The notes: generated by a model from the sequence alone, not told the origin. 64,000 bases of DNA from Candidatus Kaiserbacteria bacterium (GCA_016217925.1 JACRFK010000005.1:44170-108169); one strand, 5' to 3'. Shown: positions 602 through 38,800, counted from the first letter of the stretch. Made by a program: numbers and translations.

Positions 602-2584
602 ATGAAACTAAAACACATTTCGGCTGCCCTGGCCGTTGCCGCACTCCTGCCTTTTGCGGCGAGCGCGCTTACGACTGAAGACATTCAACAGCAAATAACC
701 GCTCTCCTTGCGCAGATCGCGCAACTCCAGCAGCAACTCAAACAACTTCAGGTGCCTGACCAGAGGGCCTGCACCATGGAAGCTAAAATTTGCCCGGACG
801 GCACGGCAGTTGGCCGCACGGGGCCGAATTGTGAATTCGCCGCGTGTCCGGGGGCTGGAGCGCCACCGTCACGTATCTGTCCGCAAATTCTCCGCACGCT
901 CGCACAAGGCGCAACCGGTGATGACGTGACACAGCTCCAGCAGTACCTCGGCGTCTCGACGACGGGCTACTTCGGCCCCGTGACCGCGCGCGCCGTTGCC
1001 GCGGCACAAGCCGACGCGGGCCTCGAACAGGTCGGCATCGTCGGCCCGCAAACTCGCGCATGGATATATAGGCGTTGCGGTGGGGGAGGTACCGTCATCA
1101 ACGACACCTTCTTCTCGGCGGTTCCGACTTCCGGCCCGGCACCGCTTTCAGTCACGTTCCGAACAAATGTTGTCAACGACTTGGATTCGTACTCAATTGA
1201 GTTTGGTGATGGAACGAACGGTCCTCTGCAGAATAATTGTTTACTCGGATACGGCGCGTGCGGACTGCCGACCGCCACGCACACCTATACCGCAAATGGT
1301 ACGTATAGTGCGAAACTTACAAAAAAGACCGTATGTGGAATGACGAACAGCATGCCAGGCAGCCAGATTCATTGCCCCACAACAGTCGGCACTGTGACGA
1401 TATACGTTGGCGGAACGACAGGTGCCGGCGCACCGGTAGTGACCGGCGTTGACGGCCCTGCCGCTCTGAATGTCGGACAAACAGGCACGTGGACGGTGCG
1501 TGCGACTGTCCCGAATAACGCGAACACAAACTTGAGGTACTCGGTCGTCTGGGGCGATGAAGGCGTGTTCGACCAAATTCGCGGATTCGGTGGTATTGCT
1601 GCACCGGCACTCGCTACCTCCGGAACCTTCACGCATGCGTATCAGAGCGCAGGCACCTTCAGGCCCACGTTCGCCGTCGCAAATGACGCCGGTAGCGCAC
1701 AGACAAGCGCGTCGGTCACCGTCAGTGGCTCGACATCGGTGGCCGATTTCTCCGCCTCGCCGACTTCCGGCCCGGCGCCGCTCAATGTGAACTTCCAAGC
1801 GTCAAATACCGACGGTATTTCCAGATACTCTGTAAATTTTGGCGACGGCTCAAGCGCGGATATGATGCCCGGCCCGATGCCAATGATGGCCTGTCCGATC
1901 GATATCGATGGCGGCGGGTGCGGGAACTGGAAATCCTATCTAGCGGCTTATCACACCTACACCTCCGCCGGCACGTACACGGCGACACTCTATAGAGACA
2001 ATTGTCCCAAGGGTGCGTACTGCTTCGCAGGGCCGTTGCCGGTCGGCACCGTGAGCATCACCGTCTCTCCGGCGCCAACGAATGCCGGATATTTGAACGT
2101 AACTCCACGCTCGGGCCCGGCACCGCTTACCGTTACCGTAACGACATCGAATTTGCCGAGCGGAGCAGGCCTTGATTTCGGAGATTCAAGCGGCTCCGGA
2201 GCGGTGGCATGCGGTGTCACCGCCAATACCACGACATCGTCCGGCAATGCCGTGCCGCAATCAACTACTCCGGTCTGGCTCCCGTGCAATTTCACGGGCA
2301 CGACGCATACCTACGCCAACCCCGGCACATACATCGTACGCGTAAGCGGAGCAAACGGAACAATCGATACCGTGACGGTCACGGTCTCAGGGATCGCGAA
2401 CACTTGTGGGGACGGAGGATGTGGCTACTGGGTGCCGCCGTCAACGTATCCGACCACGGGTGCGCCAACCCCGGCACCACAAAGCTCAGTATCAACATCA
2501 AACGCAAGCCCCTCGGCAATCTATTGGTGCGGAGACGGTGCAGTGAGCAACGTGCAGTCAACCCCTTGTGCCACTGCGCGATAA
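602..2584 (+). CDS. secreted cell-surface protein with N-terminal signal peptide, peptidoglycan-binding domain and three PKD-like repeats
   Basis: Signal peptide MKLKHISAALAVAALLPFAASA; PG-binding motif (TGDDVTQLQQYLGVSTTGYFGPVTARAV); recurring SGPAPL(S/N/T)V(T/N)F modules; Gly/Thr-rich. Confidence 0.75.
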   Translation: MKLKHISAALAVAALLPFAASALTTEDIQQQITALLAQIAQLQQQLKQLQVPDQRACTMEAKICPDGTAVGRTGPNCEFAACPGAGAPPSRICPQILRTLAQGATGDDVTQLQQYLGVSTTGYFGPVTARAVAAAQADAGLEQVGIVGPQTRAWIYRRCGGGGTVINDTFFSAVPTSGPAPLSVTFRTNVVNDLDSYSIEFGDGTNGPLQNNCLLGYGACGLPTATHTYTANGTYSAKLTKKTVCGMTNSMPGSQIHCPTTVGTVTIYVGGTTGAGAPVVTGVDGPAALNVGQTGTWTVRATVPNNANTNLRYSVVWGDEGVFDQIRGFGGIAAPALATSGTFTHAYQSAGTFRPTFAVANDAGSAQTSASVTVSGSTSVADFSASPTSGPAPLNVNFQASNTDGISRYSVNFGDGSSADMMPGPMPMMACPIDIDGGGCGNWKSYLAAYHTYTSAGTYTATLYRDNCPKGAYCFAGPLPVGTVSITVSPAPTNAGYLNVTPRSGPAPLTVTVTTSNLPSGAGLDFGDSSGSGAVACGVTANTTTSSGNAVPQSTTPVWLPCNFTGTTHTYANPGTYIVRVSGANGTIDTVTVTVSGIANTCGDGGCGYWVPPSTYPTTGAPTPAPQSSVSTSNASPSAIYWCGDGAVSNVQSTPCATAR

Positions 2585-29569: not shown

Positions 29570-30970
29570 ATGGATTTGTCGACACTAACGATTGCGGAGG
29601 CTCGTCGCGCATTGGACGCCAAAGAATATTCCGCGCTCGAACTTACGAACGCATATTTGGATGCTATTGCCCAGAAAGACGGAGAATTCCACGCATACCT
29701 AGAAGTATGGACTGATTCGGCACGTGAGGAGGCAAAGGCGGCGGATGCGATGATTGCGGCGGGCAAGTCGCAGCCGCTTACGGGAATTCCTATTGCGGTC
29801 AAGGACAATATGCTCATTGAAGGTCGTATCGTGTCGGCCGCATCGAAAATCTTGGAAAATTATCACGCCTCATACGATGCGACTGTCATTTCAAAATTAA
29901 AAGCGCAGGGCGTTGTATTTCTCGGCCGCACCAATATGGATGAATTCGCGCTCGGCAGCTCCACGGAAAATTCGGCCTATGGCCCCACCAAGAATCCGCA
30001 CGACACATCCCGCGTGCCCGGCGGCACCTCAGGCGGCTCGGCTGCGGCTGTGGCGGCAGGAATGGCGCTTGCCGCGCTCGGGAGCGACACGGGCGGCTCT
30101 ATCCGCCAGCCGGCGGCATTTTGCGGCGTCGTCGGGCTGAAGCCCACATATGGCGCTGTTTCCCGTTCCGGCCTTATCGCCGCAGCTTCCTCGCTCGACC
30201 AGATAGGCACGCTCGCGAAGAACGTGAATGATGCAAAAATCCTCTTCGATGCGATTCGCGGTCACGACGCGATGGACAGTACCTCTATAGAAAATCCGAA
30301 ATCCGAAATCCGAAACCCGAAAAAGCTTGGGGTGCCGCGGGAGTTTCTTACAGATTTGAATCCGGAAATACGGACGCAATTCGAGAGCACACTGCAGACG
30401 CTAAAAGATAAGGGATACTCGGTCACTGACGTTGCGCTACCGTCTTTGCAGTACGCGCTTGCGGTGTACTACATCATTAACCCTGCGGAAGTTTCTACGA
30501 ATCTCGCGCGGCTCGACGGCATCCGCTACGGGCTTTCCGTCCCCGCGGATGTCATCGGGGAAGTGTATTCAAAGACGCGCGCCGCGGGATTCGGCGCTGA
30601 GACACGCCGTCGCATCCTCGTCGGCACGTTCGTACTTTCTTCGGGATACGCCGATGCGTACTACCGCAAGGCGCGCTCGGCGCGCGAGCTTATACGCGCC
30701 GATTTTGCAAAAGCGTTTGAATCCGTAGATGCGATTGTCATGCCGACGACGCCATCTCCCGCATTTAAACTCGGCGAGAAAAATAATGACCCCGTATCAC
30801 TGTATCTCGAAGACATTTTCACGGTGCCTGTAAATCTCGCAGGAGTACCCGCAATATCGGTGCCTGGTGGCACCGTGGAGCGCGATGGAAAAAAGCTGCC
30901 TGTAGGATTTCAGATAATCGGTGCGTGGGGCGGGGAACAGACACTCTTTGCCATCGGCAAAGATGTCTGA
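29570..30970 (+). CDS. gatA: Glu-tRNA(Gln)/Asp-tRNA(Asn) amidotransferase subunit A (amidase signature)
   Basis: GGSSGGSAAAVAAG amidase signature; Ser-cisSer-Lys triad context; 466 aa. Confidence 0.9.
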   Translation: MDLSTLTIAEARRALDAKEYSALELTNAYLDAIAQKDGEFHAYLEVWTDSAREEAKAADAMIAAGKSQPLTGIPIAVKDNMLIEGRIVSAASKILENYHASYDATVISKLKAQGVVFLGRTNMDEFALGSSTENSAYGPTKNPHDTSRVPGGTSGGSAAAVAAGMALAALGSDTGGSIRQPAAFCGVVGLKPTYGAVSRSGLIAAASSLDQIGTLAKNVNDAKILFDAIRGHDAMDSTSIENPKSEIRNPKKLGVPREFLTDLNPEIRTQFESTLQTLKDKGYSVTDVALPSLQYALAVYYIINPAEVSTNLARLDGIRYGLSVPADVIGEVYSKTRAAGFGAETRRRILVGTFVLSSGYADAYYRKARSARELIRADFAKAFESVDAIVMPTTPSPAFKLGEKNNDPVSLYLEDIFTVPVNLAGVPAISVPGGTVERDGKKLPVGFQIIGAWGGEQTLFAIGKDV

Positions 30971-31093
30971 TCCCGCTAATGGCGCGTCGGCATCTGCTGA
31001 TGCCGACGTAAACCTCTCGCATCGGCCTTCGGCCAACACTCGACCTGCCTATGGCAGGCACACCCTCGTGTTGGTTTAGGTTATAATCTCTCC

Positions 31094-31804
31094 ATGGACT
31101 CCAATCCCGCACCCGGCAGCTCAATAGGGTCGGCGCTTTGGTTTCTCGGCGAGGTCGCATTCAAGTGGATTCCCGGTGCGGTGGTAAGCATCGCAGGCAC
31201 CGGAGTCGCGGCGCCTTCGGGAGAAGCGTCACCATTCGCCACGCCCATTACGGCCCCAGTGACCGCTCCGCAGATCGTTCAGTATCTACAGACGGCGTCG
31301 GCGCCTGGAGCGTACGACAGACTTTTCCAACAGTGGAGCACCTTTGTCGCGTTCTCACTTCTCATCTCGTTGTTGCTGGGCGCGCTTTCGATCTACTGCT
31401 CGATACGAGTTTTTCAGATACGCCAGCTCGAAAGACGTAAATTTGCGGCGGCGCAGCGTACGGTCGTGGCGCATGATGTGCCGAAAACGCAGTTACGCTG
31501 GAACAGAATACTGGAACAAGCAAACAGTGATTCCGAGCAGTCGTGGCGGCTCGCGATACTCGAGGCAGACATCATGCTCAACGAGCTCCTCGATGTGAGA
31601 GGTTATAGGGGTGAGACGATGGCAGACAAAATGCGCGGCGTTGACCGCACGGATTTCAACTCGATCGATCTCGCGTGGGAGGCTCACAAGATCCGTAACA
31701 AGATCGCGCACGACGGCAGCGCGCACCAGCTCACGGCGCGCGAGACGCGTCGAGTCGTCGCTTTGTACGAAAGAGTGCTGAAAGAATCCCGCTTCATTGA
31801 GTAG
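31094..31804 (+). CDS. membrane-anchored protein with C-terminal HEPN-like (DUF4145-like) domain
   Basis: One TM (FVAFSLLISLLLGALSIYCSI), then a C-terminal R-x4-H motif (KIRNKIAHDG) in a helical context typical of HEPN. Confidence 0.45.
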   Translation: MDSNPAPGSSIGSALWFLGEVAFKWIPGAVVSIAGTGVAAPSGEASPFATPITAPVTAPQIVQYLQTASAPGAYDRLFQQWSTFVAFSLLISLLLGALSIYCSIRVFQIRQLERRKFAAAQRTVVAHDVPKTQLRWNRILEQANSDSEQSWRLAILEADIMLNELLDVRGYRGETMADKMRGVDRTDFNSIDLAWEAHKIRNKIAHDGSAHQLTARETRRVVALYERVLKESRFIE

Positions 31805-32480
31805 TTTGTCTTGCGAGTTCTTGAATCGACCCCAGAATTCTGCGCCGCAAAGCGGTTGCTCTACGAACCTTGATGCGAAGTGTGCCGAAGTGTTGCTCCG
31901 GGTCGGAGTATACCTTTTGAGAGCGCGCCTTAATCAGACTCGCCTTTGAGAACTGCGAAAGAGGAATCCCCGAAATTTTTGACCAGTATCGCTCGACATC
32001 CGCCACTCTATGGCGATGTTTTTGGTTGATAGATACACGAAGTATCAGGTCGGACAGAGGAATGTTATATATACGTCGGAGCCAAAGTACAAAAGAGCGG
32101 ATAATATCGGGGTTACTGTTAGTGAGCCCGCACTCCTCATTTCCACTCTTATAACCTTCACCCCAGTAGAGACCTATACCCAGTATGAATATGTCCCGCT
32201 GACTCAGGGAACCGATTGCCCGGGCGCCACGTCTCGACTCTACCTCCACAGCTTCAATGCGTGCAGTACGTTTTTTCTCCGCAGCCCGTAGGCGACCGAG
32301 GGCGCCGGCGTCGTTCCGCCTTTGGACAAGTGATTGTATCTGTTTGTCCGATAGCAAGATGTCCCGGCACCAGTAGCTCACGGTGCTTTTACTTGTCTTC
32401 AGCATCGTTGCGATTACTGCAATGCTTTCTCCCTTTACCCGCAAACCGCGTGCCTTCTCGCGAAGTCGGATGAAAGCCAT
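31794..32480 (-). CDS. HTH + LAGLIDADG-like putative homing-endonuclease-family protein (paralog 1), divergent from the intron-containing tRNA(CAU)
   Basis: N-terminal HTH (IAVIATMLKTSKSTVSYWCRDI); central LGIGLYWGEGYK...TNSNP motif resembling a single LAGLIDADG motif; ~35-40% identical to the ORF at 34855..35544. Confidence 0.6.
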   Translation of the reverse strand: MAFIRLREKARGLRVKGESIAVIATMLKTSKSTVSYWCRDILLSDKQIQSLVQRRNDAGALGRLRAAEKKRTARIEAVEVESRRGARAIGSLSQRDIFILGIGLYWGEGYKSGNEECGLTNSNPDIIRSFVLWLRRIYNIPLSDLILRVSINQKHRHRVADVERYWSKISGIPLSQFSKASLIKARSQKVYSDPEQHFGTLRIKVRRATALRRRILGSIQELARQTTQ

Positions 32481-32564
32481 CCGAGCATGATAACACAAGG
32501 TTTCTGGATATCAGTCGGTTGTCCAGTGCTTGCATGCAGTGGCGTATACGTCTATACTCACAAA

Positions 32565-32868
32565 AGCGGGGTGGAGCAGTAGTAGCTCGCAAGGCTCAAT
32601 ATGGGCTCGTTCACGAGCAATTGTGAACGGAACACTTGTCAAATTCGGTGAAACCTCTCTCGTGCCACGAGGTGGCAATACCGAGCCAAGTCCCGCCGGC
32701 GGCGGGAAAGGTGTAGAGACTAGATGGCAGGCTCCCAGACGGATACTTGAAAAGTATCGTGAGGGATGAAGGTATAGTCCAGACCACGAATCCACTGGTA
32801 GTGGAGCGGCGAAAGCCGTAGCGGTATGCATAACCTTGAGGTCGCAGGTGCAAGTCCTGCCCCCGCAA
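32565..32868 (+). tRNA. tRNA(CAU) (initiator-like tRNA-fMet; Ile2/elongator Met not excluded) interrupted by a group I intron between U33 and C34
   Basis: 5' exon AGCGGGGTGGAGCAGTAGTAGCTCGCAAGGCT (32565..32596) nearly matches E. coli tRNA-fMet 1-26; 3' exon CATAACCTTGAGGTCGCAGGTGCAAGTCCTGCCCCCGCAA (32829..32868); spliced anticodon loop is CTCATAA; 1:72 A.A mismatch. Confidence 0.8.
32597..32828 (+). ncRNA. self-splicing group I intron, subgroup IC3-like (232 nt, no internal ORF)
   Basis: Conserved core blocks GTCAAATTCGGTGAAACC, TGGCAATACCGAGCCAAG, AAAGGTGTAGAGACTAGATGGCA (R) and AAGGTATAGTCC (S) align with the Azoarcus pre-tRNA-Ile intron; 5' exon ends in U and the intron ends in G. Confidence 0.8.
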
Positions 32869-32960
32869 CAGAATTGTGACGCTTGGAACTCGTTCCGTCA
32901 GGCGTCGAAAGTGCAAGAAGTCGGTACTATACCGACGGACCTAAAAGCTCAAAGGAACGA

Positions 32961-32988
32961 CAAGGCCGCGATGAAAATCGCGGCTTTG
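32961..32988. terminator. hairpin between the tRNA 3' end and the convergent gene (bidirectional terminator candidate)
   Basis: caaggccgcgat-gaaa-atcgcggctttg. Confidence 0.45.
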
Positions 32989-33010
32989 TCGTGTTGCGGG
33001 TCAGGGATAT

Positions 33011-33685
33011 TTAGTTAGACTTGGAGGAGTTAAGGTTGATAGCTAAAGAATTTATACTTCCCACCGGTTCTCCACTTCGATTACACAGGCTGATTTTACC
33101 TGACATCCTATAAACTCCGGATAAATCGGTTAGGCTTCTACTGATTCCTGCAAGATGAACAGGTTCGCAGGAAGTCAAAGCTTCATCCGGTACTGCGGAG
33201 AATGCAACCGAATTATGAAAAGGAGTATGTCTTAGTTCTACGAAAATATCAAAGAAAGAATTCGCCGGAATATTGCTTCCCCCTATACCAACCGGCATAC
33301 GGACAAGCCGTTCGGCCACACCCGTACTTCGATTCGACTTACTGCTGTTGAGATTGACCGCTAAACCCCGTGATGTTGTGCCCGTTAAGCTCATACTTAC
33401 AATCTCTGTAGCCACATCCGGCAAACCATCGCTATCCACATCGCCAATCACAGAACCCTCGATTATTGCAGTTCCTTTCGCTTCAAATGTCTGGGCCAAA
33501 CGCTCATTAAAAAACTTCACTTTGCCCTTGACAACCATGTGGTATGAACTGATCCCCCTGCTAGGGGAGGTGGCGAAGCTTACGACGGGCGCTGCAAAAA
33601 GTACACCCGCGAGGAGAATCGACGCGAAAAAAGCAGCCCCAGAGGTCAAAAGCATCAGCGCTGTTGTCGATGGTCCGAACTTCAT
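33011..33685 (-). CDS. secreted hypothetical protein with internal repeat
   Basis: Signal peptide MKFGPSTTALMLLTSGAAFFASILLAGVLFAAP; repeated A(V/I)NLNSSKSN segment. Confidence 0.55.
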   Translation of the reverse strand: MKFGPSTTALMLLTSGAAFFASILLAGVLFAAPVVSFATSPSRGISSYHMVVKGKVKFFNERLAQTFEAKGTAIIEGSVIGDVDSDGLPDVATEIVSMSLTGTTSRGLAVNLNSSKSNRSTGVAERLVRMPVGIGGSNIPANSFFDIFVELRHTPFHNSVAFSAVPDEALTSCEPVHLAGISRSLTDLSGVYRMSGKISLCNRSGEPVGSINSLAINLNSSKSN

Positions 33686-34089
33686 GTAGTGCCAGCCTAA
33701 GGACTAATGTATCGGATGTCAAGCGAGAGAAAATCCTGTGACTATGGCGATTTAAGACCAGCGAACCAACCTGAAATCAGGTGCCAATCCCGTCGTATAC
33801 TTGCAACAAATACTGAAAAGGCTCCCGCATGTCGGGGGCTTTTTCAGTATTCGGATTGTGCGGGGAGCGAGGCAACTGCTTGCCTCGCCTGCGGACTTGC
33901 AAGGCGGAGCGATGCCGAGCTAGCAGGCGAGGCCGCGAGCCGGGGTCGCGAAATTTCCGAGCGGCGGCGAGGAAATATTTGTGACCATGTCCTGCCCAAG
34001 CCTGCCCCCACAATGCACAGACGAGCGCACCAAGAGCTGCGGCAAGTGCTACCATTGCAGGACAGTCGGAGGAGATACCGGCCGGACAT

Positions 34090-34576
34090 TATGGACACAT
34101 CGGGAGAAAAACCATTTGCATTACTCAGGATTCTTTTCGGTGCAGTGTGGCTCGTTGATGCTGTATTCAAGTGGAATCCAGCATTTTTCGACGCTTTCAC
34201 GTCTTACGTCGTAGGAGGTACACAAAATCAGCCTCCTCTCGTGCAATCATGGATCGATCTGTGGGTGAATGGGGCAAACGTGGACCCATATTCTTTCGCC
34301 GTCGTTGTGGCGATTGGGGAAACTGCGATAGCGCTGAGTCTGTTGTTCGGCGTACTTACTCAGCTCGGCATCGCAGGCGGGATCGCGATGATGTTGGTCG
34401 TCTGGTCTACTGCCGAAGGATTTGGGGGGCCATATGTCGCGGGCTCCACCGACATCGGCGCCGCGGCCATTTACGTCATCGTTTTTGTCGCGCTCTGGTT
34501 CGGGCGTTGTTGGCGACAATACAGCCTCGATCCCTTAATAAGAAAATGGCTTCCGGTTTTGTACCAGCATTGGTAA
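34090..34576 (+). CDS. DoxX-family membrane protein
   Basis: 4 TM helices; DoxX-like pattern (FALLRILFGAVWLVDAVFKW...); 162 aa. Confidence 0.65.
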
Positions 34577-34596
34577 GGCACAGATGGCGCTCCTTT

Positions 34597-34776
34597 TTAG
34601 GGCTCTTGCAGGGCGGCAAAGATGACCTCGGTCACCCCCAAAAAAGCGAATAACAGAAGCGAGAGCAAGAATTGTTTCCACGACCAAGTCAGTATCGCGT
34701 TGCCGGCAGAGTAGACAAGGAAGACGCCGGCCAATGCCAAGAGTACGGAGTTGGCCTGTAAAATGTGTCCCCACAT
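34597..34776 (-). CDS. putative small membrane protein (59 aa), absent from the ORF track
   Basis: MWGHILQANSVLLALAGVFLVYSAGNAILTWSWKQFLLSLLLFAFLGVTEVIFAALQEP; two hydrophobic helices; convergent with doxX. Confidence 0.3.
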   Translation of the reverse strand: MWGHILQANSVLLALAGVFLVYSAGNAILTWSWKQFLLSLLLFAFLGVTEVIFAALQEP

Positions 34777-34854
34777 GAATTAAAGCGTAGCACAAAAGAC
34801 ACAGGTGGGGATAATGAAATGGACGTACGTATACGCGCTATATACAATATCAAT

Positions 34855-35544
34855 ATGGCAAAATCGAAGGAACGAATCCAGGCGAAAGTTCTGCGTAACA
34901 AAGGCCGGAGCATTCTTTCTATCGCGGAGGAGTTGAAAGTCTCAAAAGCGAGCGTTAGCTCATGGTGTCGAGATATTGTATTAACTGAGAAACAGATCCA
35001 ATTACTCACAGAGCAAGGTCAGCAAGGCGCCCGTCGCGGACAGTTACTGGGGGCCGCTGTAAATCGAAAGAAAAAGGAAGATAGCATCGCTCGATATCGT
35101 CTTGACGCCCAAAACGAGCTCCATAATTTAACACCCCGAGAAGTTCTCTTGGCGGGACTGGGGATTTATTGGGGGGAAGGCATCAAGGGAACAGGTACGG
35201 TGGCGGTGACAAATTCAGACCCAAGAGTTATTTCTTTTATGCTCCACTGGTTTCGTAGCATGTTCGACGTGCCGAAAGAGATGTTCCGTCCCCAGATATT
35301 TATAAATGACACACATCGGCCCCGGGAGAAGACTGTTCGAAAGTTCTGGTCTACATTACTCGATATACCTGATGCGCAGTTTCGCAAAGTCGTTTTTATA
35401 AAAGTAAGGAACAAGAAGGTTTACGAAAACCACGATTCGTATTATGGTGTCTTAGCGCTTCGAGTCAGGAAGGGAACAAGTTTGAAGTATAGAGTTCTTG
35501 GTTATTTGGACGCACTCGGAGCACAATACAATAAGCCGACGTAG
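34855..35544 (+). CDS. HTH + LAGLIDADG-like putative homing-endonuclease-family protein (paralog 2); 3' end overlaps tRNA(CAU) by 10 nt
   Basis: ILSIAEELKVSKASVSSWCRDI HTH; LLAGLGIYWGEGIKGTGTVAVTNSDP motif; paralogous to the ORF at 31794..32480; stop TAG lies inside the tRNA acceptor stem. Confidence 0.6.
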   Translation: MAKSKERIQAKVLRNKGRSILSIAEELKVSKASVSSWCRDIVLTEKQIQLLTEQGQQGARRGQLLGAAVNRKKKEDSIARYRLDAQNELHNLTPREVLLAGLGIYWGEGIKGTGTVAVTNSDPRVISFMLHWFRSMFDVPKEMFRPQIFINDTHRPREKTVRKFWSTLLDIPDAQFRKVVFIKVRNKKVYENHDSYYGVLALRVRKGTSLKYRVLGYLDALGAQYNKPT

Positions 35545-35607
35545 CTCAACGGTTAGAGCGGAGCCCTCATAAAGCTCAGGTTACAGGTTCGATTCCTGTC
35601 GTCGGCA
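35535..35607 (+). tRNA. tRNA-Met/Ile2 (anticodon CAU), intron-less, elongator-type (G1:C72)
   Basis: GCCGACG acceptor; anticodon loop CTCATAA; T-arm GGTTCGATTCC; 73 nt. Confidence 0.85.
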
Positions 35608-35650
35608 TTTCATTGAAAAATGAGTGATTTTCAAGTATTGTGTGCATGTT

Positions 35651-35724
35651 GCGGGTGTAGCTCAATTGGTTAGAGCACTCCCCTGTCACGGGAGAGGCTG
35701 CGGGTTCGAGCCCCGTCACTCGCG
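35651..35724 (+). tRNA. tRNA-Asp (anticodon GUC)
   Basis: GCGGGTG acceptor; anticodon loop CTGTCAC; T-arm GGGTTCGAGCCCC; 74 nt. Confidence 0.9.
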
Positions 35725-35734
35725 CTAGTGAGAC

Positions 35735-35765
35735 AAAAGGCCGCCTGAAAAGGTGGCCTTTTGCG
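35735..35765 (+). terminator. rho-independent terminator after the tRNA pair
   Basis: aaaaggccgcc-tgaaa-aggtggcctttt. Confidence 0.6.
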
Positions 35766-35812
35766 CACAGGGCAAGCGAAGAGGGAAGCGCGCGGATGGT
35801 ACCATCGTATGT

Positions 35813-38800
35813 ATGGTAGAGCGTTCGCATCAAGGTCCTGGAAAAGGTCCTCTGGGAGGTCCGCGGGCATCTCAAGATCAACAACAAGTTGATGAGAAAG
35901 GAATAAAAAGCGACTTGGCCGTTCTCCTACGAAGTCTAGAAGACATGGAGAAACGTGTCGTGAAATCAGGTCAACAGGTTTTTTTCGGTACAGCTCAGCT
36001 CGGCCATCGTATCGAGACATTGCAACGTACTCACCAAGGCGGGACCCACGATGTGCGGATAATGTATGACGCACTTTTTGATGCGGGAGTTCCTGCGGCT
36101 GCTTTGGAGGATTTTGGCAGAAATGTTGCAAAGAGAGGAGTTCCAGACAACCAGCTCTTCAGCACAGGATACATAAAAGAAAAGTTCTTCTCCAAAGGAG
36201 TTATTTCCGAGGCAGGACTCAAATTCAACCCCGGCGAAGGCGGGGAAGCGTGGCTCAGTAAACATGTCCAAGAAGAGCTTGAAGGATTAAGAGGTTTCGA
36301 TCTCGGCGCTGCTTGCAAGGTCCAAGACCTCGCGAGGTCAATGGGAACACAGTATGGCAATTCAGCGGCGATGATGACGCGGCTCATGTTTGTATGCAGC
36401 GGTAACGAACCTGGTGCCGAAGAGAGATCCGTTCGCTTTTCCGATCCCGCCGAAAAGATAGGGCTCCTCGTCCGAAGTCGCCTTGCAGAAGCCCGTACAA
36501 AAGGGGTGAGAGAAGAAAATACGTTTGTGGAAGGGATGCAGATGTTTTTAGGCGTATACGCAGATATTACGGCGAAAGTTCTTCAAAACGCAAAACCGGA
36601 ACAGCAAGCAAATATACATGAGAGATCAAAAGCGATGCTTTCCAAGCTCCTTCAATCGGAACAACTTCGAGCGGCGCATCTGGACCCCGGCAAGAGTCCT
36701 CCCGACCCTTTCAGTATATTCAGCGAACTGTTGCGAGAGGAGGGCGCAATAAATCCTTGGGTTGTCGGTGACAGCACCGAGACACCTTTTGACATCGGCA
36801 AGTTCCACCTCCTAATCTCTCCGGACGTGCCGCGCGGGCTTGTTGCCGACGCTGTCTTCGTCCTCAACAACTACCAGGAGGCGTTACTTGCACAGGATGT
36901 AGCAAAAATCCCCGCAAGTGTGCAAAAGTATAAAGACAGACAGCGGCAGGCAGGTGCGAACGCGGAACTACCCTCGGGTCTTGATATAACGAAAGCACTT
37001 ACCAATGCAGCTTCACGCATATGCAGGTTGCGGGGAGAGAAATTCAATGCACCTAATCCAAAGGAGGACACCGAAGAAGTGCTGCGTCTTAAAAGACAAG
37101 AGTACGAACGAATAGTCGAGGATTTCGTGAGGCCACTTGGACGAGGCATTCCCCCCTTCTCAGCCCTCTTACGTATTGTAGACCCCAAGAAAGTCGTAAG
37201 AGACGGCCAGATTAGGGACGATTTCATTCCGCTGCTCAAGAGCATACCTAAATTTAGCGATACAGCGGAAGATGCAGATAAGGTTAGAATAGTCGCTTCT
37301 TCGGTAAAGACGTTCCTGGAAGATCCGGACCCTTACTTGGATGTTCCGCTTTTGGGCACAGAGGGTGATTATTCATTGCGCACGCTGCTCACTATCCGAG
37401 CCAATGAGTGGTTCGATAAGGAAATCCTTCTAAGAGGTCCCTACGCACATTCAGACAGGAAGGGAGCACCTCCGCCCGAGCCGCTCATTCCGCCGCGCGA
37501 TACATGGCGTGTCCCAAAAGAGCGTCTCGTAGAATTGGCGAAGAATTTCAATACCGCCGCGGGAGCAAAATGGTTGTGGGCCAGAGAGTGGATCGAGGAT
37601 GCTTGTAAGATTCTTCGAAGACTACCGAATAGTTATGAAAATATTCTCGGCTTCGCTTCGCGCGAATCAAAAAGGTACTACAAAATGCCGGGAGAATACG
37701 AAGTAGTTTTCTATGCAAGTGCGACCGACGCAATGAGCAACATTGTAGATAAATTATTCCCCAACATGGTTGCGGGAGATTATTTTATCGGCTCACCGCA
37801 GGAATACGAGAGTATGGCGGATCCCCTCATTCATAAGGGTGCCCGATTTGAAGCGGCATATATCAACGAACGAATCGGCGATACGCGCCGTACAAAGACT
37901 CCGGATCAATTTTATGATGACATAGTCCGCATCATCGAAAGTCCCAGGAAAGATGGGCGACTCCCGCGAGCAATCTTTCTTAGCAGCAAAACCCGCTTCG
38001 GTGATGCGGTTGGTGTAACGCCCCCCGAGCCGCGCCGCGTGCTTGACGAAAATGGAAAAGAAACCGGGGAAGAAAAGATGTTTTACACCCCAAACACTCA
38101 CGGGCTTTCCATGATTATTCAAAGACTCAAGAGCCGCTATCCTTCCGTGCCGGTTGCTGTCGACGGGTGTCAAAGCGTTGGCCGCAACGATCGCGACGAA
38201 GACCTCAGTCGTCTCGGCTGCGACATATTCATTAATAGTGGTGGCAAAGGTCCTGGTATCGAAAACGTTTCAATGGTCGCTATCAGAAAGGTTAGCCTGG
38301 AGCAACGGGACGATAAGGGAAATGTTGTCAGAAAGGACGGCAAGCCGGTTTTTACAACCCCGGAGCATCACTGGTTGGAACACATCACAGATGAGAAAGT
38401 CTTACGGAATCCAGAATCTGTATTGACCCCAGGCAAGGGGACCGTCGACATCAGTCGCGTCGCGGCGTTAGGTTTCGCGTTACAACTGCTCGATTCAAGG
38501 ATAGATACATGGAGCGTCATTGACCCTAGCGACAAGCGTAAGCAGCGTGACCGGATAGCCGATCATATGGGGGCGATGACTGAGCACATGCTGACGCGCA
38601 CACAGGAATATGCGGGGTCCCTATTTAAAAGATTGCAAACCGCCAATTTACCTTTTCCCATTCCAGATGAAGCGAGTCTTGCAAAAAATCCTGAATTCGT
38701 AAAACGTTTCGGTTGTCAGGTAGTCCATCCCGCTCATCAAAATATTATCGACTACGACGGAATCGTCACGCTGACCTTTCCCAATATCGGTACAGTCGAG

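Follow-up and report, generated by a model that had tools for sequence, protein, structure and literature searches.

Helix-turn-helix proteins with a LAGLIDADG-type fold in tRNA gene flanks of Patescibacteria: candidates for a new family of free-standing homing endonucleases

Two paralogous open reading frames (ORFs), p1 and p2, lie directly beside two tRNA genes with a CAU anticodon in a 64,000-nucleotide stretch of a Candidatus Kaiserbacteria genome (GCA_016217925.1 JACRFK010000005.1:44170-108169), which is called the window here. With a probability of roughly 60%, and leaning on a structure model, we consider them to be members of a new family of free-standing homing endonucleases in the flanks of tRNA genes. 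The B-type members, to which p1 belongs, possibly mobilise in trans a group I intron that carries no ORF, in the initiator tRNA gene (tRNA-fMet). The evidence for this reading comes from the modelled fold and a conserved motif, from the fixed placement of the genes, from their presence and absence among related genomes and from their residence in phage tRNA arrays.

Two paralogs beside tRNA(CAU) genes

The relevant features of the window are listed below. X stands for a gene of the helix-turn-helix (HTH) + LAGLIDADG-like family, and the labels L001 to L093 and P0150 to P0200 denote the genomes, contigs and proteins which were compared.

31794..32480, minus strand: p1, B-type HTH + LAGLIDADG-like protein of 228 amino acids (ORF; clade B in the tree; 274 bits against the family profile)
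32481..32564, no strand: divergent intergenic region between p1 and tRNA-fMet, 84 nt, with promoter-like sites in both directions (sequence)
32565..32596, plus strand: tRNA-fMet 5' exon, positions 1-33, last base U33 (read from the sequence)
32597..32828, plus strand: ORF-less group I intron of 232 nt at tRNA position 33/34 (Rfam RF00028, 69.1 bits; boundaries read from the sequence)
32829..32868, plus strand: tRNA-fMet 3' exon, positions 34-73 (sequence and fold of the joined exons)
34793..34854, plus strand: p2 cassette, 5' flank, in which promoter-like TGGACG-17-TACAAT stands at 34820-34848 (homology break and promoter scan)
34855..35544, plus strand: p2, A-type HTH + LAGLIDADG-like protein of 229 amino acids (ORF; clade A)
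35535..35607, plus strand: elongator-type tRNA(CAU), most likely tRNA-Met (ARAGORN; Rfam 69.6 bits)
35608..35650, no strand: spacer of 43 nt between tRNA-Met and tRNA-Asp, the empty site for the LAGLIDADG_3 gene of relatives (comparison with relatives)
35651..35725, plus strand: tRNA-Asp(GUC), next in the conserved fMet / X / Met / Asp / Thr / Thr cluster (ARAGORN, Rfam)

A preliminary description of this DNA had reported p1 and p2 as clear paralogs. Both ORFs are present, and they share 82 of 225 residues (36%, E 1e-52). It had also put 85 bp between the start of p1 and the intron-containing tRNA(CAU), where we measured 84 nt from the p1 start codon to the 5' end of tRNA-fMet on the opposite, divergent strand. 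Its 10-nt overlap of p2 with the intron-less tRNA(CAU) is exact, with p2 ending at 35544 and the tRNA starting at 35535. The TAG stop codon of p2 coincides with the tRNA bases U8-A9-G10, and the last three sense codons of p2 together with the stop lie within positions 1-10 of tRNA-Met. The stop end of p1 in turn overlaps the convergent host ORF 31094..31804 by 11 nt (31794-31804).

The group I intron was matched by Rfam at 32587-32801 with 69.1 bits (gathering score 50). Reading of the sequence identifies the interrupted gene as the initiator tRNA-fMet (32565-32868) with the intron (32597-32828) between U33 and C34, and the spliced exons fold into a 73-nt tRNA(CAU) with an A1xA72 mismatch. Position 33/34 is a known insertion site of fMet introns (PMC13011429). 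With its 232 nt the intron is too short for an endonuclease-size ORF. Promoter-like sequences are found on both sides of the intergenic region, CTGATA-16-TATCAT at 32514-32487 (minus strand), 6 nt ahead of the p1 ATG, and TTGCAT-17-TATACT, read by eye, ahead of tRNA-fMet.

The tRNA(CAU) overlapped by p2 is most likely tRNA-Met rather than tRNA-Ile2, because its position is kept in genomes which carry a tRNA-Ile(UAU) and because of its resemblance to the elongator tRNA-Met of E. coli. Its anticodon stem has a C31-A39 mismatch. As a side observation, the tRNA(CAU) genes which adjoin A-type genes often have a non-Watson-Crick 31:39 pair at the lower end of the anticodon stem, that of the window being C-A and those of other loci A-A, A-G or U-G. 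The promoter-like TGGACG-17-TACAAT lies 6 nt before the p2 ATG, in a promoter scan whose total hits were not above those of shuffled controls. We also considered a tRNA-Met promoter inside the 3' end of p2 (TTGGAC-15-TACAAT, by eye). It was rejected since only 2 nt separate its -10 hexamer from the first base of the tRNA, which would place the transcription start within the tRNA.

Domain architecture and predicted fold

We modelled p2 with AlphaFold2 on a 35-sequence alignment, with a predicted local distance difference test score (pLDDT) of 91.3 and a predicted template modelling score (pTM) of 0.71. The model consists of an HTH (residues 4-37), a single helix of 44 residues (45-88) and an alpha/beta core (94-223). 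Structure prediction had been proposed in the preliminary description as a check for the alpha-beta-beta-alpha-beta-beta-alpha LAGLIDADG core, and this core is seen in the model. In the fold comparison the core reached figures of 9.2 with the TliVMA intein endonuclease, 9.0 with WhiA (8dy9), 7.9 with I-Tsp061I, 7.5 with I-DmoI, 7.3 with WhiA (3hyi), 7.1 with I-CeuI and 5.7 with I-CreI. The N-terminal part of the model resembles resolvase- and Tc3-type HTH domains. An HTH in this part of both ORFs had been noted from the outset and agrees with weak, consistent Pfam matches, HTH_23 being found in 31 of the 35 aligned family members (best E 6.9e-8).

The placement counts, the alignment and the tree reported here use the best 80 of at least 425 genome loci together with the window, 88 copies in total. 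The shared motif that had been described as YWGEG.K followed by NS.P is real and reads G-x3-YWGEG-x-K, then NSDP. E108, G109, W165 and G198 are invariant in all 88 homologs; G101 and N120 are each kept in 87, position 107 is G or A in all 88, K111 is K in 85 and R in three, and H154 and R157 are kept in 84 of 88. The motif helix of p2 (94-108) terminates at E108, an acidic end like that of LAGLIDADG motif helices. The suggestion of a LAGLIDADG-like protein with Glu in place of the catalytic Asp thus finds its counterpart in a LAGLIDADG-type fold whose motif helix ends in a conserved Glu.

Sequence searches gave a different picture of the C-terminal domain. With the p1/p2 family as query, Pfam, NCBIfam, PHROGs, a phmmer search of the PDB and a PDB profile search matched only the HTH. 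Neither p1, p2 nor any of the 35 aligned members matched Pfam LAGLIDADG_1, _2, _3 or _WhiA, even at E ≤ 10. Aligning the family with nine co-resident LAGLIDADG_3 genes using hhalign was not significant (probability 0.2), nor was the comparison with I-CreI, in which the only alignment paired GLGIYWGEG with LAGFVDGDG. A Foldseek search of the p2 model against PDB and BFVD found no match at E ≤ 1e-3. Membership in LAGLIDADG was thus not found at the sequence level by Pfam, PDB profile or hhalign, so the assignment rests on the fold and the position of the motif. The model supports a LAGLIDADG-type fold for the C-terminal domain, recognised by fold comparison only, and on this basis the p1/p2 family should not count as a proven LAGLIDADG endonuclease.

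Placement of the family beside tRNA genes

A profile search of 1.84 billion representative proteins matched 4386 clusters at E ≤ 1e-10, of which 1081 also passed E ≤ 1e-30, with source labels such as "hypothetical", "HTH domain-containing" or "transposase". The scan of species-representative genomes, which gave the at least 425 loci, was run with a 12-sequence alignment, as the 35-sequence alignment had no stretch conserved enough. Nearly all of the best 80 loci belong to Patescibacteria-type metagenome-assembled genomes, some of them under other automatic labels. A neighbour-joining tree of the 88 copies has a clade A with p2, a clade B with p1 and two small divergent clades.

In clade A, 72 of 74 genes are followed on the same strand by an elongator-type tRNA(CAU) within 100 nt, and the other two lie at contig ends. 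Chance adjacency to tRNAs was rejected on these 72 of 72 assessable loci, in all of which the insertion point is identical. The ORF ends inside the tRNA in 49 of the 72, and in 34 of those 49 the stop codon falls on U8-A9-G10. The usual gene order is fMet, X, Met, Asp, Thr, Thr. Within 300 nt upstream of the A-type gene, tRNA-fMet is divergent with an intron at 15 loci, divergent without an intron at four, on the same strand without an intron at 18 and on the same strand with an intron at one. There is no fMet inside 300 nt at 34 loci.

The clade B genes are placed differently. All ten are divergent to a group I intron at ~80-110 nt, and no tRNA follows the gene in nine of the ten. Eight of the introns were found at the Rfam gathering score, that of L068 reached 46.8 bits and that of L056 was identified solely from a split fMet of 308 nt. 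In eight of the ten cases a split tRNA-fMet could be confirmed as the host gene. The p1-type gene beside an intron-bearing tRNA, first seen in the window, is therefore a recurrent arrangement of B-type genes. It has the composition of a collaborative pair, an endonuclease-like gene adjoining an ORF-less intron, with p1 at 84 nt from its intron-bearing tRNA-fMet and the divergent layout in 10 of 10. No B-type copy was found beside an intron-less fMet, compared with 22 A-type copies. Across 26 divergent loci the spacing between the gene and fMet is 77-125 nt.

Outside these two clades the neighbouring tRNA changes. One divergent clade lies 12-20 nt upstream of tRNA-Ile(UAU). The homologs P0165 (L086 3001-4599) and P0175 (L087 1115-2710) adjoin tRNA-Gln(UUG), the L086 copy being upstream of glmU-prs. 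YWGEG is kept by each of 25 relatives found on viral contigs of IMG/VR with lengths of 15-527 kb, and 21 of them lie within ~125 nt of a tRNA in dense arrays of many tRNA types, two with a 10-nt overlap. Because relatives occur beside tRNA-Ile(UAU), tRNA-Gln and the tRNAs of phage arrays, a position next to a tRNA gene characterises the family as a whole and is not specific for CAU. The tie to tRNA(CAU) proposed in the preliminary description accordingly holds for the 72 assessable A-type genes but not for the wider family. Likewise, the search of other genomes of the Candidate Phyla Radiation (CPR) that it called for showed that the linkage to tRNA(CAU) recurs, but 22 A-type copies lie beside an intron-less fMet and 34 have no fMet nearby.

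Some observations on individual members may be added. Two copies are decayed, L029 by a frameshift and L039 by N-terminal truncation. The high-GC homologs P0150, P0165, P0175 and P0200, with 430-576 amino acids, contain two full units (HTH ... YWCEG ... NSDP) fused in tandem in one chain. The promoter region of the gene is conserved in L040, L042, L050, L057-L060, L067, L072, L073 and L078. In these 11 loci it consists of TTGACA-N17-TATAGT, whose spacer contains AGAAC, of a palindrome, AGTACT, immediately past the -10 and of GGTTC right before the ATG, repeats which could be an operator for autoregulation. On the tRNA side, three intron-less initiator tRNAs upstream of X, in L036, L045 and L077 (GGCCCATAACC), have C33 in place of the near-universal U33. 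Located at the last exon base of the 33/34 intron site, C33 could block intron insertion or alter a target site. In L022 (3616-3901, minus strand) the group I intron of tRNA-fMet is apparently inserted after U36 (36/37) and not at 33/34, with exon ends read by eye.

Presence and absence in closely related genomes

The genome locus closest to the window, L076, belongs to Candidatus Kaiserbacteria RIFCSPHIGHO2_01_FULL_55_37. Its synteny with the window extends from the host ORF up to and including tRNA-fMet, and it has a p1 ortholog which is 92% identical. It is without p2: a 50-nt spacer with promoter-like TTGTGG-N17-TACTAT, located directly before tRNA-Met, replaces window 34793-35532. A metagenome scan with the tRNA-Met sequence of the window gave five further contigs. 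The distribution of the B-type gene, the fMet intron, the A-type gene and a LAGLIDADG_3 gene beside tRNA-Asp is as follows.

Window: B-type (p1) yes; fMet intron yes; A-type (p2) yes; LAGLIDADG_3 no
L076 and L083: B-type yes; fMet intron yes; A-type no; LAGLIDADG_3 yes
L084 and L085: B-type no; fMet intron no; A-type no; LAGLIDADG_3 yes
L001: B-type no; fMet intron yes; A-type yes; LAGLIDADG_3 no
L081: B-type and fMet intron not covered; A-type yes; LAGLIDADG_3 no
L082: B-type and fMet intron not covered; A-type no; LAGLIDADG_3 yes

Both p1 and p2 are thus present in some and absent from other related genomes at a fixed site. In L001 the same host ORF as 31094..31804 is followed after 51 nt by tRNA-fMet, with no p1, and in L079 the fMet and Met genes are 28 nt apart with nothing in between. 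The tRNA-Met of the window is found again with an identical sequence in L076 and with 100% identity in L082, L084 and L085. Homology of the window to the X-less relatives L076, L082 and L084 stops at 34792. Acquisition of p2 in the window lineage, at the exact site used in distant genomes, would be the simplest history, since three gene-less relatives have the same spacer. No conserved sequence was seen upstream of tRNA-Met in the three empty sites of L076, L079 and L068.

The intron-less tRNA-fMet of L084 and L085 has the opposite orientation to the tRNA-fMet of the window, and their tRNA-Met is preceded by the L076-type 50-nt spacer; the 5' exon of the window tRNA-fMet is 100% identical to their intron-less fMet. 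These two contigs are 95.6% identical to window 35680-38000 and 75-82% identical in the upstream genes (window 30152-31803). The mosaic suggests a recombination breakpoint inside the region of the tRNAs and endonuclease-like genes.

Between the window and L076, a single genome pair, p1 has a synonymous divergence (dS) of 0.39 and the adjacent host gene one of 1.34, with DNA identities of 89.6% and 80.1%, respectively. The ratio of nonsynonymous to synonymous divergence (dN/dS) of p1 in this pair is 0.11, in keeping with constraint on the active-site-like residues E108, G109, K111, N120, H154 and R157. The intergenic region between p1 and tRNA-fMet is 96.4% identical, compared with 80% for the flanking host gene.

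The LAGLIDADG_3 gene is a second kind of insert in the same cluster. In L076 (1606-2310, minus strand) it is a 234-aa ORF with two motifs (PF14528, E 1.9e-12) on a ~760-nt insert between tRNA-Met and tRNA-Asp. It is also found in nine further X-bearing genome loci and in L082, L084 and L085, with a sporadic distribution, and it ends at or within the 5' end of tRNA-Asp. The copies in L009, L011 and L012 are frameshifted or partial. Judged by sequence, this gene is a canonical comparator in a slot analogous to that of p2.

A proposed homing mechanism and its alternatives

In the mechanism that we propose, each protein would combine the N-terminal HTH and the long helical linker with a single, highly diverged LAGLIDADG-type nuclease domain. 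It would probably act as a homodimer with the invariant Glu (E108) of the GEG motif as metal ligand. A double-strand break would be made in the gene-less allele of a tRNA locus, near the 5' boundary of the tRNA, and repair off the gene-carrying allele would copy the gene with some flanking sequence into the tRNA 5' flank. In this way p2 would have taken the place of the tRNA-Met's own promoter, so that p2 and the tRNA are probably co-transcribed. p1 and the ORF-less group I intron may form a two-part unit for trans or collaborative homing, in which the intron-containing fMet allele would be immune and an intron-less allele of the L084 type would be the predicted substrate. The strict pairing of B-type genes with an ORF-less intron fits the collaborative or trans homing known from phages.

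A further-reaching version is more doubtful, and we put it forward as a speculation. Here the B-type gene and the fMet intron would be a two-part homing unit in a cellular chromosome, the family would be the mobility engine of the endonuclease-less tRNA introns of Patescibacteria, and it would drive a mosaic exchange of tRNA clusters among Patescibacteria and huge phages. The A-type gene, which would replace the promoter of an essential tRNA and ends inside that tRNA, would be hard to delete and its expression tied to pre-tRNA processing.

Several observations weigh against a family of homing endonucleases. The genes of the family are mostly intact and very widely distributed (at least 425 loci; 1081 clusters at E ≤ 1e-30), and their tree roughly tracks taxon labels, which also fits a long-retained host gene. 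The LAGLIDADG link of the domain was not recovered by the Pfam, NCBIfam, PHROGs, PDB, hhalign or Foldseek searches. The lower dS of p1 comes from a single genome pair, and an intron-less fMet lies next to 22 A-type copies. We rejected a target located wholly within tRNA-Met, as the tRNA is identical with and without p2. We also rejected a family-wide enzyme which cuts the fMet anticodon loop or intron site, given the many A-type copies beside an intron-less fMet whose loop sequence is the same; going by these sequences, such a family-wide cutter is unlikely. For the homing or collaborative homing put forward in the preliminary description this means that both copies are present and absent among close relatives as predicted, but the target proposed there, the CAU tRNA gene, is not supported, nor is its anticodon loop.

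The same data bear on three other explanations. In WhiA two degenerate LAGLIDADG domains are combined with a C-terminal HTH, and the catalytic acidic residues are lost. In analogy, p1 and p2 could be a domesticated LAGLIDADG scaffold whose HTH and saddle domain bind the divergent promoter and control tRNA-fMet, tRNA-Met and their own gene without cutting. The divergent HTH layout, the very conserved region between p1 and tRNA-fMet and the operator-like repeats in one lineage would suit such a regulator, though autoregulation would also be compatible with a homing endonuclease. We consider the regulator unlikely, as the acidic residue that WhiA-type proteins lost is invariant here (88 of 88) and the architecture is unlike WhiA, with a single domain where WhiA has two and with an N-terminal HTH. 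Moreover, close relatives keep an identical tRNA-fMet and tRNA-Met without the protein, which is thus dispensable for these tRNAs, and other relatives lie beside many unrelated tRNAs in phage arrays. LAGLIDADG maturases, which help their own introns to splice, are an established class, and a free-standing maturase would bind the group I intron RNA of pre-tRNA-fMet and aid its folding and splicing. All ten B-type copies, p1 included, adjoin a group I intron, as do 16 A-type copies an intron-containing tRNA-fMet. To our knowledge, however, the known LAGLIDADG maturases are encoded within their intron, while p1 is outside the tRNA gene and p2 is 2 kb away from the intron. With 22 A-type copies beside an intron-less fMet, 34 without fMet within 300 nt, phage and Actinobacteria-type relatives beside intron-less tRNAs, and L001 retaining the intron without a B-type copy, this explanation is very improbable. 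In addition, the Patescibacterial tRNA introns assayed in vitro, which were those of Asn and Asp and not of fMet, self-splice without protein (PMC13011429). Both the regulator and the maturase had been raised in the preliminary description; the invariant Glu and dispensability weaken the former and the intron-less homologs the latter.

A role at the RNA level or in the maintenance of tRNA arrays could take the form of a pre-tRNA 5' processing factor acting through the overlap of ORF and tRNA, or of a nuclease in phage-host conflicts over tRNA arrays. For the 49 of 72 A-type genes whose ORF terminates within the tRNA, cleavage by RNase P would take away the stop codon, and the family is found both in CPR genomes and in large, tRNA-rich viral contigs. 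The LAGLIDADG_3 gene overlaps tRNA-Asp in the same way, which makes the overlap more simply a by-product of tight insertion in compact genomes, and we give this role little credence.

Relation to known systems

We found no description of the p1/p2 family in the literature searched. The single-motif homodimers I-CreI, I-CeuI, I-MsoI and I-Vdi141I have no detectable sequence homology to it. I-CreI-type enzymes are encoded in introns or inteins, whereas the p1/p2 genes are free-standing in tRNA gene flanks and their proteins, in the model, have in addition an N-terminal HTH, the 44-residue linker helix and an extra helix between core strands 3 and 4. WhiA / DUF199 is a domesticated LAGLIDADG scaffold with an HTH which serves as a transcription factor. 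Its architecture is not that of the p1/p2 proteins, which have one domain, an N-terminal HTH, an invariant Glu and no Pfam WhiA match.

The closest parallel in lifestyle is SegB of phage T4, a free-standing homing endonuclease in a tRNA cluster which recognises a conserved tRNA motif with degenerate flanks (PMC2330249). As with p1 and p2, related genomes have the cluster without the gene, and relatives of p1 and p2 reside in phage tRNA arrays. SegB differs in being a phage gene with a GIY-YIG fold and no intron partner, whereas the p1/p2 family is mostly found in bacterial chromosomes. By analogy, recognition of a tRNA motif with degenerate flanks would explain how one family can serve many tRNA neighbours. 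Collaborative and intronless homing has been reviewed (PMC3984707), and examples of collaborative pairs are F-CphI and the psbA intron in cyanophage S-PM2 and, in T4, mobE and the I-TevIII intron (PMC3984707, PMC2790892). F-CphI and mobE are phage genes with Endo VII-like or HNH folds and demonstrated cleavage at the intron insertion site, whereas the pairing of p1 with the intron is hypothetical and A-type copies often coexist with an intron-less fMet. LAGLIDADG endonucleases in CPR rRNA insertions (Tsurumaki et al. 2024, as cited in PMC13011429) and the LAGLIDADG_3 gene share the phylum and the general lifestyle, and LAGLIDADG_3 likewise abuts a tRNA 5' end. These are recognised by Pfam (PF14528) and have two motifs, in contrast to the p1/p2 family, which is invisible to the Pfam LAGLIDADG models and hhalign.

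On the strength of the model we rate the p1/p2 family as a LAGLIDADG-like branch that is an orphan by sequence, has an HTH fused to it and occupies a new niche in the chromosome. If its members are active endonucleases, the LAGLIDADG superfamily would gain a new branch in which an HTH is tethered to the nuclease. Its habitat, likewise new, would be the 5' flanks of tRNA genes, both in the chromosomes of bacteria and in the tRNA arrays of phages. As compact and possibly modular meganucleases the proteins would also be of interest as scaffolds for genome editing. In a 2026 survey of the tRNA introns of Patescibacteria, endonuclease genes were sought only within the introns; since most introns have none, its authors concluded that horizontal transfer is limited (PMC13011429). 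A neighbouring free-standing endonuclease acting in trans would, if true, alter this conclusion, and the family may explain the spread of tRNA introns without an enzyme of their own. For annotation pipelines, ORF ends inside tRNA genes should be expected.

Further variation in tRNA clusters

On the IMG/VR contig L093 the relative at 1807-2205 (minus strand) is located inside a 6.6-kb stretch with 17 tRNA genes and a tmRNA gene. In the window, 32871-34010 (~1.1 kb) corresponds to ~200 nt in L076, another indel in the same hotspot. This segment contains an ORF at 33011..33685 (minus strand) of 224 amino acids with an N-terminal hydrophobic segment.

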